From Escherichia coli (GTDB taxonomy: Bacteria > Pseudomonadota > Gammaproteobacteria > Enterobacterales > Enterobacteriaceae), in the NCBI RefSeq assembly GCF_003334815.1, contig NZ_QOWO01000069.1: a stretch of DNA of 5,921 nucleotides. The stretch is one strand, 5' to 3'. Within the stretch, counting starts at the first letter, position 1. Each line of letters begins with the position of its first letter. Positions 2,402-4,774 of this stretch are shown here, piece by piece. Both the position numbers and the translations under genes were made by a program. The notes under the pieces are model-generated. The model was not told the DNA's origin and did not search any database. It worked only from the letters and a program-made list of their open reading frames with translations.

Positions 2402-2455
2402 CACGGTATCTCCCTTGCTGCCGCCCCGTCTCCGGCGGGGCGGTGTGGTTGTTCA

Positions 2456-4423
2456 TCAGGCGGCATCGGCCTGGTTGTCACGGTATTCCGTGGTTTCCGT
2501 CTCTGCCTGTGGACGTGGTGTACACATCCAGCCAGGCACCCAGCGGTTGTCTTTCATGTGGAGCTCTGCATGTTCAGCCGCATCGCCTTTCTTCATTTTC
2601 TCCGCGTCCCGCGCAGCACCGGACAGTCCTGCATCATTCAGGGCATCGATAATCTGCGGCTTTTTCAGATGTCCGAAGAAGTTTGCTTTTGTCGGCTGCC
2701 ACCAGTCACGCATGTGGAACCCGATAGCGGTTTCCAGCGAGTCAAGCGGACTGCGTGACGTGTGACCATGCTCGCGAGTCTGGACACCATCCACGGAACA
2801 GGCTGTACAGAAAACCATCAGACTCATCAGAGTCTGTCCGTTAAGCGTGAAGAATGTGGTGAAATCTTTCTGCCAGCCCTCCGGCAACAGAGCCTCCAGA
2901 CGGGCTTTTTCCTGCATCAGACTCAGCCACGCCTGACCTCTCTTTCCACCGGGAGCATCACTTGTCAGCCTTCTGTGATTCTCTTCAATCTGTATCCTGA
3001 ACGGGTGGAGAGTGGTATTGCAGTAATCAAAAACACAACAGCACAATCGCCAGACCATCAGTGCCACTGTTTTTTCAGGTTGATGTATCAGCGCCGCCTG
3101 GACTGCCAGCGTGCGCTCTGAGGACATTTTCGTCAGCAACGGCAGGCTGATTTCCTCCACTGACGCTTTCTCCTGCACCTGTTCCGTGCGGTCAGCGTCG
3201 TCAGCCACGTCATCCTCACTGCGCAACTGCACACCACGCTGGACACACACGTTGCCATAACGCCAGGACACCACCACTCCACCTCCGGCACGCATCTCCG
3301 GCGTCCACGCTCTGACCTTCGCCATGCAGCGCATCAGCTTCATTTCTGCTTCCAGCAGGTCAGATTCCTCACACTGGTTTTCCAGCGCGTCGTAACGCGT
3401 CATCAGTTCGTTCAGGCGTTCTTCTTCCGCCTCCGTCAGCACCGCTTCCGGCTCCGGCAGACAGCGGTATGTTCCGGCATCCTCACGGCACTCACCGACA
3501 GGCTCCATGCGCCCGGCGCACCATTCCCAGCCTTCGGCTTCCCGAAGGTGTTCAGCAACAGCCTGGAGTTTTTCCAGCAGGGCGGCATTGAGCGCCACGC
3601 AGTCCACATAGCCACCTTCGTCGTCGCTGAACAAATCGGTGCGCAGTTCATCTGGCGAGAAGGCATCAGCCCCCACAAAGCGGAATTTACTGTTCCCCGC
3701 CACCGCCACTTCACTTTCGGTCACCAGACGACGAATGGTCTGTACTTCCGGTTTACCGCCCCATCCCGACTGACAGGCGGCTTCAAACACCTGCACCTGA
3801 CGCGCGGTGTCATTCTCCAGCGCCAGCGCCTGACAGTGTTCGGTGGTGATGCGGTCTTCTGCCAGCGCATCGAGGATGACAGGCGCAAGGTCAGCCAGTT
3901 TCAGCATTCGCTGGACATGGCGGGGTGAATAACCCAGCAAGTCACCGATTTGTGCAGGTGTTTTGCCTTCCTGCGCCATTGCGCGGAATCCGGCAATCTG
4001 TTCGGCAGGATGCATATCCCGACGATGACCGTTTTCAGTCATTGATGCGGCAGTCGCCAGCTCCTGCGGAATGACCTTCACACGGACAGGCCAGTCAGCC
4101 GGAAGGATGCCACGCTCTGCCAGCATGTTGAGTGCAGCCAGTCGGCGACCACCTGCGGCGACACCGTAACGCTCACCCGACAGGGCATGAACAACCAGAT
4201 TCTGCAACAGGCCGACGCCCTTAATGGACTCCGCCAGTTCGCTGACGGACTCTGCGGAATACGGCACAGTGCGCACATTCAGCGGTGATTTAATCAGTGA
4301 GGCCAGCGACACGCTCACTTCTTCCGTCTGCGCCAGCAGGGCAGACAGTGCAGTCTCCTGCACTTTTGACGGTTTACGGCTGGATTTACGCCCCGCTTTT
4401 ACCTTAAACTCTGTAACTGACAT
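2456..4423 (-). CDS. ParB/Srx-domain protein of the plasmid leading region (ParB-like nuclease/DNA-binding domain at N-terminus, long uncharacterised C-terminal region), 655 aa
   Basis: 655-aa ORF with ATG at 4423 and RBS AAGGGA. N-terminus carries ParB box motifs (SPLNVR around residues 46-51; GGRRLAAL at residues 91-98, resembling the GERRxRA arginine patch) and a helix-turn-helix-like segment (TPAQIGDLLGYSPRHVQRML). The C-terminal ~400 aa have no motif I recognise. A large ParB-like gene next to ssb is a hallmark of IncF/IncI leading regions. Confidence 0.85.
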   Translation of the reverse strand: MSVTEFKVKAGRKSSRKPSKVQETALSALLAQTEEVSVSLASLIKSPLNVRTVPYSAESVSELAESIKGVGLLQNLVVHALSGERYGVAAGGRRLAALNMLAERGILPADWPVRVKVIPQELATAASMTENGHRRDMHPAEQIAGFRAMAQEGKTPAQIGDLLGYSPRHVQRMLKLADLAPVILDALAEDRITTEHCQALALENDTARQVQVFEAACQSGWGGKPEVQTIRRLVTESEVAVAGNSKFRFVGADAFSPDELRTDLFSDDEGGYVDCVALNAALLEKLQAVAEHLREAEGWEWCAGRMEPVGECREDAGTYRCLPEPEAVLTEAEEERLNELMTRYDALENQCEESDLLEAEMKLMRCMAKVRAWTPEMRAGGGVVVSWRYGNVCVQRGVQLRSEDDVADDADRTEQVQEKASVEEISLPLLTKMSSERTLAVQAALIHQPEKTVALMVWRLCCCVFDYCNTTLHPFRIQIEENHRRLTSDAPGGKRGQAWLSLMQEKARLEALLPEGWQKDFTTFFTLNGQTLMSLMVFCTACSVDGVQTREHGHTSRSPLDSLETAIGFHMRDWWQPTKANFFGHLKKPQIIDALNDAGLSGAARDAEKMKKGDAAEHAELHMKDNRWVPGWMCTPRPQAETETTEYRDNQADAA

Positions 4424-4483
4424 GATTATTCCCTTTATGGTTTAGTTAATGTCTGCCGGACGCCTTCCCGTCCGGCACCTCTC

Positions 4484-4717
4484 TTACTTAAGAATGCCGA
4501 AATCCCGGATGACATGGTTCATCCAGTACCCGGCACCGTCCTCAAAATTCCAGGTACGCCAGACCATTGCACCGTTATTACGGACAACCAGGCGAAAATG
4601 TTCTCCGTGGTCATCCTCGATAAAGACGTTCCGGTACTGTTCAGCAACAGCTTCGGCATGTTTGCGGGTAAAAGGACCATCAGGCAGCCCCTGAAGTATT
4701 CTGAAATATTCGCTCAT
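4484..4717 (-). CDS. Small DUF905/YkfF-like protein (77 aa from ATG at 4717; alternative starts ATG 4723 or GTG 4744)
   Basis: Compact ORF between ssb and the ParB-like gene. Sequence ([67 protein letters not shown]...) resembles the DUF905 family (E. coli YkfF) from memory. GGAGAG sits about 6 nt upstream of ATG 4717. The GTG at 4744 lies in the loop of an intergenic hairpin, so is unlikely to be the start. Confidence 0.6.
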
Positions 4718-4774
4718 ACTCATCTCTCCGGTGATGCCCCGCACAGGACGGGGCGGTTATCACGATCAGCCCGA

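Follow-up and report, generated by a model that had tools for sequence, protein, structure and literature searches.

The stretch of DNA analysed here (hereafter the window) comprises 5921 nt of the leading region of an F-like conjugative plasmid, in which each of the three gaps between the cistrons ssb, DUF905, ParB-like and psiB holds a short GC-rich hairpin, named HP1, HP2 and HP3 in the order of transcription. These hairpins are under purifying selection and, very probably, it is a structure of the mRNA strand that has been selected. Their main role would be that of a stability element, i.e., a barrier to mRNA decay, a reading to which we assign a probability of about 0.5. They represent a known kind of RNA element, conserved and functionally constrained, that is newly recognised in a region already studied in depth, where earlier work centred on the large stem-loops of the promoters. 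The window is matched at 80-97% identity by more than 5000 plasmid records, with both IncF and IncI/K plasmids included, and the hairpins are present in at least 5000 sequenced plasmids, F among them.

Three conserved hairpins between cistrons

All the genes of the window lie on the - strand, and the mRNA order is ssb (4775..5302), which encodes the plasmid single-stranded DNA-binding protein and is the first cistron of the operon, followed by the DUF905 gene (4484..4717; yfjA in F), the ParB-like gene (2456..4423; yfjB in F), psiB (1967..2401) and psiA (1251-1970); Frpo2, a single-stranded-DNA promoter, drives this transcription in the new recipient cell. The original prediction placed one inverted repeat in each of the first three gaps, and all three are found at those positions; psiB and psiA overlap, leaving neither a gap nor a hairpin at their junction. 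HP1 (4731..4763, core 4736-4754, - strand) has core arms at 4736-4741/4749-4754 that form six Watson-Crick (GC) pairs and, on the mRNA strand, an additional U-G pair (GCCCCGU-CCUGU-GCGGGGC), lengthened to 4731-4763 by an outer GUGAU/AUCAC helix. It starts 20 nt past the ssb stop codon, and the Shine-Dalgarno (SD) motif GGAGAG lies 7 nt past the core stem and 1 nt past the outer helix. HP2 (4454..4477, - strand) consists of nine perfect pairs (arms 4454-4462/4469-4477, UGCCGGACG/CGUCCGGCA) closed by a 6-nt loop; it starts 6 nt past the stop codon of the DUF905 gene, and 30 nt separate its end from the start codon of the ParB-like gene. For HP3 (2421..2443, - strand) 10-nt arms had been proposed, of which an 8-bp perfect core stands (2421-2428/2436-2443, CCGCCCCG/CGGGGCGG, with the 7-nt loop CCGGAGA), whereas the two extra positions pair only on the + strand (as C-G and T.G); it starts 12 nt past the ParB-like stop, with the SD GGGAGA 8 nt past the stem. 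The motif CCCCG...CGGGGCGG is indeed common to HP1 and HP3. The mRNA tails that follow the three stems read AUCACCGG, GACAUUAA and CAGCAAGG and contain no U-run.

Some features of HP3 and HP1 deserve a separate mention. The HP3 loop (window 2429-2435) includes an SD-like GGAG, and distant lineages have a nearly identical heptamer, CGGAGAC, that immediately precedes a tetraloop hairpin instead of forming its loop, which could reflect loop expansion, arm rearrangement or coincidence. Read on the + strand (window 2419-2445), HP3 forms 10-12 pairs by means of G.T and is followed by TGTGGTTGTT, so that a simple scan reports a terminator-like element for antisense transcription. The A-rich stretch preceding HP1 reads GTTTTCAT on the antisense strand of distant homologues.

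Are these hairpins more than the GC content of the gaps would give? When each gap (66-71 nt) is shuffled, HP2 alone is individually significant (z -4.1 to -5.0), with z values of -1.0 to -2.6 for HP1 and HP3 in their own gaps. The window's own coding sequence (3.8 kb, taken as 3765 windows of 30 nt and as 61 blocks of 60 nt) provides another control. HP2 (-18.6 kcal/mol) and HP3 (-17.6 kcal/mol) are more stable than all the 3765 coding windows and all the 61 blocks, and HP1 (-14.2 kcal/mol) is matched by 0.5% of the former and 4 of the latter; the presence of such hairpins in three out of three gaps is therefore far beyond chance.

The gaps were compared across 48 related loci, comprising IncF and IncI plasmids, contigs with a diverged PsiB and 40 loci from species-representative genomes. 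These 40 include Raoultella, Cedecea, Pantoea, Edwardsiella, Erwinia, Citrobacter and Klebsiella and encode PsiB proteins that are 35-99% identical (35-100% in the whole set). The gene order ssb-DUF905-ParB-psiB is widely retained among them, and a GC-rich hairpin occupies the equivalent place in every gap that could be extracted (24 ssb/DUF905, 36 DUF905/ParB and 45 ParB/psiB gaps), with free energies of -12 to -25 kcal/mol, stems of 6-11 bp and spacers of 3 to 8 nt. The distance from stop codon to stem is 2-20 nt in 79 of the 80 distinct sequences (25 nt in the remaining one), and it narrows to 7-10 nt in 29 of the 32 sequences of the ParB/psiB gap. Some of the loci are listed under unexpected organisms: L009, L019 (a Streptomyces morookaense assembly) and L010 (an Oscillibacter metagenome-assembled genome) are enterobacterial-type leading regions under non-enterobacterial names, near-identical to E. 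coli F-like plasmids in the case of L009 and L010 and with a PsiB 58% identical in L019, most likely due to contamination or mis-binning in those assemblies.

Among the close IncF/IncI relatives, the 48 stem nucleotides show zero to one change with respect to the window, whereas fourfold-degenerate sites diverge by 15-25% and the other intergenic positions by 15-23% (binomial P of 7e-6 to 9e-5 in five of the six comparisons, and 3e-3 in the sixth, with L010). The hairpins and the adjoining ribosome-binding sites thus appear as islands of 100% identity amid a mosaic background. In loci L004-L007, for instance, psiB is 70% identical in nucleotides to that of the window and psiA and ssb are 94% and 92% identical, respectively, but the first ~60 nt of psiB together with the HP3/ribosome-binding-site segment are 98-100% identical, and therefore a recombination breakpoint lies inside psiB. 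The possibility that the hairpins were themselves cassette or recombination boundaries was ruled out, as the mosaic breakpoints do not coincide with them. One locus departs from this pattern: in L008 (5944-6000) the 3' arm of HP3 contains one additional G and the SD lacks one, its psiA is split and its PsiB and SSB matches are frameshifted, all of which looks like sequencing or assembly error and not like real variation.

Alignment of whole gaps with MAFFT and RNAalifold under-called the stems, due to lineage-specific indels and architectures, and family-wise alignments with explicit structures were used instead. In them, 95-100% of the paired cells are compatible with pairing across families, compared to 21-65% when the partners are slid. 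In the HP3 family 96.5% of the cells pair (33-65% slid) and one pair changes from CG to GC or UA in three sequences; the GCCCUGC(C)GGAG type of HP2 is 100% paired, with two adjacent pairs changing from C-G to U-A in one lineage, and the UGCCGG type of HP2 is 95% paired, with two pairs that alternate between A-U and G-C. Moreover, the same gap may carry differently built stems depending on the lineage, such as CCGCCGCC/GGCGGCGG, GGCUGCCC/GGGCAGCC and GCGGCCC/GGGCCGC at HP3. The refutation test attached to the original prediction, i.e., the search for conservation and compensatory changes in related plasmids, gave this outcome: the hairpins are conserved, and the compensatory changes are present but few.

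The strand on which the structure is selected

The + strand of the window is the transferred strand, since in F the nic-strand motif has the antisense orientation with respect to the leading genes, with oriT downstream of psiB; it is likewise the template strand, and the - strand is the mRNA sense. Which of the two folds was evaluated on 226 sites (175 distinct sequences) with a stop-hairpin-SD-start context, whose hairpins were chosen symmetrically from scans of both strands. An earlier form of the test had chosen them by sense-strand energy, which was biased, and the result held under the strand-symmetric ascertainment. A wobble pair tells the strands apart, in a sense that A.C on the mRNA equals G.U on the other strand, and G.U prevails over A.C on the mRNA (53 vs 17, p = 2e-5) in sequences that are phylogenetically non-independent and amount to roughly 5-10 hairpin families, the direction being consistent across families. 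The loops point the same way: of 61 tetraloops, 29 belong to the UNCG (16) or GNRA (13) classes in mRNA sense, against 0 and 3 in antisense, and UNCG makes up 20 of the 24 tetraloops of the ParB/psiB gap (UGCG 10, UUCG 7, UCCG 2, UACG 1). As UNCG and GNRA loops are stabilising motifs specific to RNA, the selected structure would be an mRNA hairpin and not one of the transferred DNA. Within families the loops interchange among these hyperstable RNA classes, which fits selection for thermodynamic stability and not for a specific protein-binding site.

The original prediction also considered secondary-structure signals in the transferred single strand, and that option is disfavoured. On such a reading, small hairpins of the DNA would act while the plasmid is single-stranded in the recipient, by slowing the synthesis of the complementary strand, displacing SSB or serving for priming. 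The strand that enters the recipient is the + strand, the stems of the window are perfect palindromes that fold equally as DNA (-11 to -13 kcal/mol), and the large Frpo2 stem-loop has been reported to stall complementary-strand synthesis (bioRxiv 10.64898/2026.01.09.698686). However, on the transferred strand the G.U wobbles of the homologues turn into C.A mismatches and the loops are no longer specially stable, the placement follows stop codons and ribosome-binding sites, which are features of the mRNA, and stems of 7-11 bp are small compared to the stem-loops of hundreds of nucleotides of the single-stranded-DNA promoters. Neither do the complements of the observed loops (CGNA, UYNC) fit the DNA mini-hairpin motifs with GNA or GNNA loops. 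Altogether, a DNA signal of this kind is quite improbable.

Still less credit is given to a third option, in which the inverted repeats act as double-stranded DNA and are bound as operators or parS-like sites by a dimeric protein, for example the neighbouring ParB-like protein. A ParB-family gene does lie within the block, the arms are more conserved in sequence than a pure structure predicts, with most pairs invariant, and symmetric half-sites would co-vary too. Nevertheless, the three sites differ in sequence, the spacers range from 3 to 8 nt, a site in double-stranded DNA accounts neither for the strand asymmetry nor for the tetraloops of RNA type, and unrelated gaps of the leading region bear unrelated GC hairpins of the same design, so that such binding sites are highly unlikely.

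A proposed role in message survival

ssb, yfjA, yfjB and psiB are produced synchronously from Frpo2 as one operon (PMC9849209, PMC12672017), and for this reason the hairpins probably do not stop transcription. The original prediction had noted that they lack a T-run and are not canonical terminators, and this holds beyond the window, with zero to two U in the 8 nt past the stem in 78 of the 80 distinct homologous sequences and four at most. Since there is no U-tract, the RNA polymerase would read through them. What is left in the message is a stable mRNA-sense stem-loop located shortly 3' of a cistron within a polycistronic transcript, as in known stabilisers. The proposal is that the hairpins block 3'-to-5' exonucleases (PNPase, RNase II), for which a stem of 7-11 GC pairs with a UNCG or GNRA cap would be suitable, so that a transcript ending or cut downstream would be trimmed back only to the nearest hairpin and each complete upstream cistron would retain its stop codon and remain translatable. 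The AU-rich 30 nt past HP2 are a plausible target of an endonuclease, and a folded hairpin beside an SD may, in addition, keep it clear of long-range pairing. As for the earlier suggestion of mRNA processing or stability elements, its RNA side gains support from the selection on the mRNA strand (the G.U excess, the mRNA-sense UNCG and GNRA loops and the place just past the stop codons), and the function itself is deduced from these traits.

Several points weigh against this reading. Apart from the non-independence of the sequences used in the strand test, formal covariation is thin and, because most of the stem pairs never vary, much of the signal amounts to sequence conservation. The decay-barrier role is deduced from the anatomy of the hairpins, and HP1 and HP3 abut the SD (at 0-5 nt in most homologues), which fits a translational role equally well. 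Finally, in a control of 50 kb of E. coli K-12, 7 of the 11 same-direction gaps of 40-170 nt hold strong hairpins. One hairpin per gap was thus rejected as something unusual in itself. Most of the hairpins of this control are followed by U-runs, i.e., they are ordinary terminators, and what is distinctive of the plasmid hairpins is the combination of an intra-operon position, the absence of a U-tract, loops optimised for stability and a tight placement past each stop codon.

The main rival is precisely the translational role, which we hold to be possible but rather unlikely as the principal one. In it, the hairpin would insulate the ribosome-binding site, or fold out 20-30 nt so that the upstream stop codon adjoins the next SD, allowing re-initiation or coupling. 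In most homologues the first SD-like motif follows 0-5 nt after the end of HP1 and HP3, the 7-10 nt from stop to stem in the ParB/psiB gap are about the reach of a ribosome placed on the stop codon, and the ribosome-binding site beside HP3 is conserved as strongly as the HP3 stem. Besides, an adaptation of leading-region genes for efficient translation has been reported (bioRxiv 10.1101/2025.04.03.647016). On the other hand, HP2 lies further away, with 14-21 nt between its end and the SD and 28-34 nt to the start codon, and consequently SD adjacency is not common to the three hairpins; in addition, the same plasmids couple genes elsewhere through short or overlapping junctions (psiB/psiA and the tra operon). 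A translational role is compatible with the stabilising one, and both could hold.

Hairpins without U-tracts can pause the polymerase, and those studied here might be partial attenuators or pause signals that slow or stop a fraction of the polymerases, perhaps more on a single-stranded template, setting the expression ratio along the operon; a variant is that they perhaps mark Rho-dependent 3' ends. GC-rich sense-strand RNA hairpins at gene ends agree with this, but nearly all the sequences have only zero to two U past the stem, the stems of 7-11 GC pairs with UNCG or GNRA caps greatly exceed in stability what a pause would require, and all the cistrons, including the downstream ones, are synchronous from Frpo2 (PMC9849209), which makes attenuation improbable.

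Within the stabiliser reading, it might be asked whether the hairpins are a specific adaptation of the genes expressed from the incoming single strand, with each cistron individually capped. This is a speculative extension and we consider it doubtful. Transcripts from a single-stranded-DNA promoter would have no fixed 3' end and could be overtaken by complementary-strand synthesis moving in the same direction on the same template, of which there would be a single copy for a few minutes, so that the decay of a truncated transcript would halt at the end of the last gene it contains in full. A further contribution might be to detach the RNA from the single-stranded template immediately before each ribosome-binding site. 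If this were true, operons induced zygotically could be diagnosed by the presence of a hairpin after each of their cistrons. More generally, if every cistron has a conserved, stability-optimised hairpin, post-transcriptional design (message survival and possibly translation) would be part of the establishment programme. The hairpins could also help, as a sequence signature, to locate operons with zygotic expression.

Other gaps, known systems and the rest of the window

Outside the ssb-psiB block, other leading-region gaps of F and IncI plasmids, next to genes for antirestriction, DUF1380, methyltransferase and DUF3560 proteins, contain unrelated GC hairpins without U-tracts, several of them capped by UNCG or GNRA. 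In F (NC_002483) there are seven annotated same-direction gaps in the leading region, and a GC hairpin (-15 to -25 kcal/mol) occupies the six that measure 45-76 nt, capped in one of them as C(UGCG)G; the seventh (118 nt, 14821-14938) reaches only -9.8 kcal/mol and has no strong hairpin. Three other annotated IncF/IncI loci show a hairpin of -14.7 kcal/mol or lower in 16 of 16 gaps of 46-129 nt. Examples of these sites are found at 4591-4666, 6021-6065 and 7682-7727 in the F plasmid (L049), at 7850-7895 and 9258-9308 in locus L001 and at 294-357 and 625-717 in locus L003. The junctions of the tra operon, mostly of 8-32 nt or overlapping, have no such hairpins. At the end of the block in the window, hok is followed by a hairpin (543..562, - strand, AGGCGGGC-GCAG-GCCCGCCU) with UUUU next, a terminator-like arrangement that contrasts with HP1-HP3.

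How do these hairpins compare with known elements? Repetitive extragenic palindromic (REP) sequences at junctions of the malE-malF type are intercistronic mRNA-stabilising stem-loops that act as barriers to 3' exonucleases, and the resemblance lies in a stable mRNA stem-loop just past a cistron of a polycistronic transcript, with no U-tract and with read-through. Unlike REP sequences, each gap has its own hairpin of 19-29 nt, with neither a REP consensus nor the character of a dispersed repeat family. Membership in the REP or bacterial interspersed mosaic element (BIME) families, which are dispersed imperfect palindromes of 35-40 nt with a shared consensus, was rejected: the hairpins of the window measure 19-24 nt (33 nt for HP1 if the outer helix is counted) and are not alike, and the window contains no repeat family other than the Frpo repeat. 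Hairpins of the C(UUCG)G or UNCG kind were reportedly described by Tuerk et al. in 1988 in intercistronic regions of phage T4, and the ParB/psiB gap of the homologues likewise shows short GC stems with UNCG caps between genes of an invading element. The differences are that the copy of the window, which represents the IncF/IncI lineage, has loops of 5-7 nt instead of tetraloops, and that the host element is here a conjugative plasmid operon transcribed from single-stranded DNA.

With intrinsic terminators the hairpins share a GC-rich stem-loop past the stop codon, and GCCCCG/CGGGGC stems are typical of them. They differ in their position inside an operon whose downstream genes are co-expressed (PMC9849209) and in the lack of a U-tract, and were not assigned to the Rho-independent class, since the stem-loop is there but the U-run (about four or more within 8 nt) is not. 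The Frpo and ssi promoters are also conserved secondary-structure elements of leading-region intergenic DNA, in this case long stem-loops that span hundreds of nucleotides of the transferred strand and through which -35 and -10 boxes are rebuilt ahead of operons. By contrast, the hairpins are of 19-29 nt, lie between cistrons and are selected on the opposite (mRNA) strand; with stems of 6-9 bp and the mRNA-strand structure favoured, they do not belong to that class, and a scan for promoter-like hexamers at the hairpin sites found none. RNase III sites as in the early region of phage T7 were discarded as well, given that they involve about two helical turns (at least 20 bp) of double-stranded RNA and the stems have only 6-11 bp. 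A literature search, which left older subscription papers on the F leading-region sequence outside its reach, returned no earlier description of these small hairpins, and a search for ProQ or FinO binding at the hairpin sites retrieved nothing relevant.

Regarding the remaining elements of the window, the hok open reading frame (571-732, - strand) forms with sok (730-901, a match to Rfam RF01794) the hok/sok module (571-901), and sok is the only match in an Rfam search of the window. Upstream of ssb, the region 5342..5921 (+ strand) corresponds to a single-stranded-DNA promoter of the Frpo2/ssi type (PMC9849209, PMC12672017), with the same hairpins as found upstream of ssb in F, and the Frpo2-type structure of the transferred + strand would drive the ssb operon. 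The window is bracketed by a direct repeat of 257 nt (30-286 and 5661-5917), whose copies are 97% identical and correspond to Frpo/ssi single-stranded-DNA promoter elements. Both copies contain the GCGACCG/CGGTCGC and CATCCCGGC/GCCGGGATG hairpins known upstream of ssb in F, and the window therefore spans from one Frpo/ssi-type promoter copy to the next. Just upstream of ssb, within the Frpo2-like region, there is also an AT-rich inverted repeat with 21-nt arms (CAGAACGCAAAATTTTTTACC / GGTAAAAAATTTTGTGGGCTG, window 5479-5528), which is likewise found at the equivalent position of F (L049 8925-8960).

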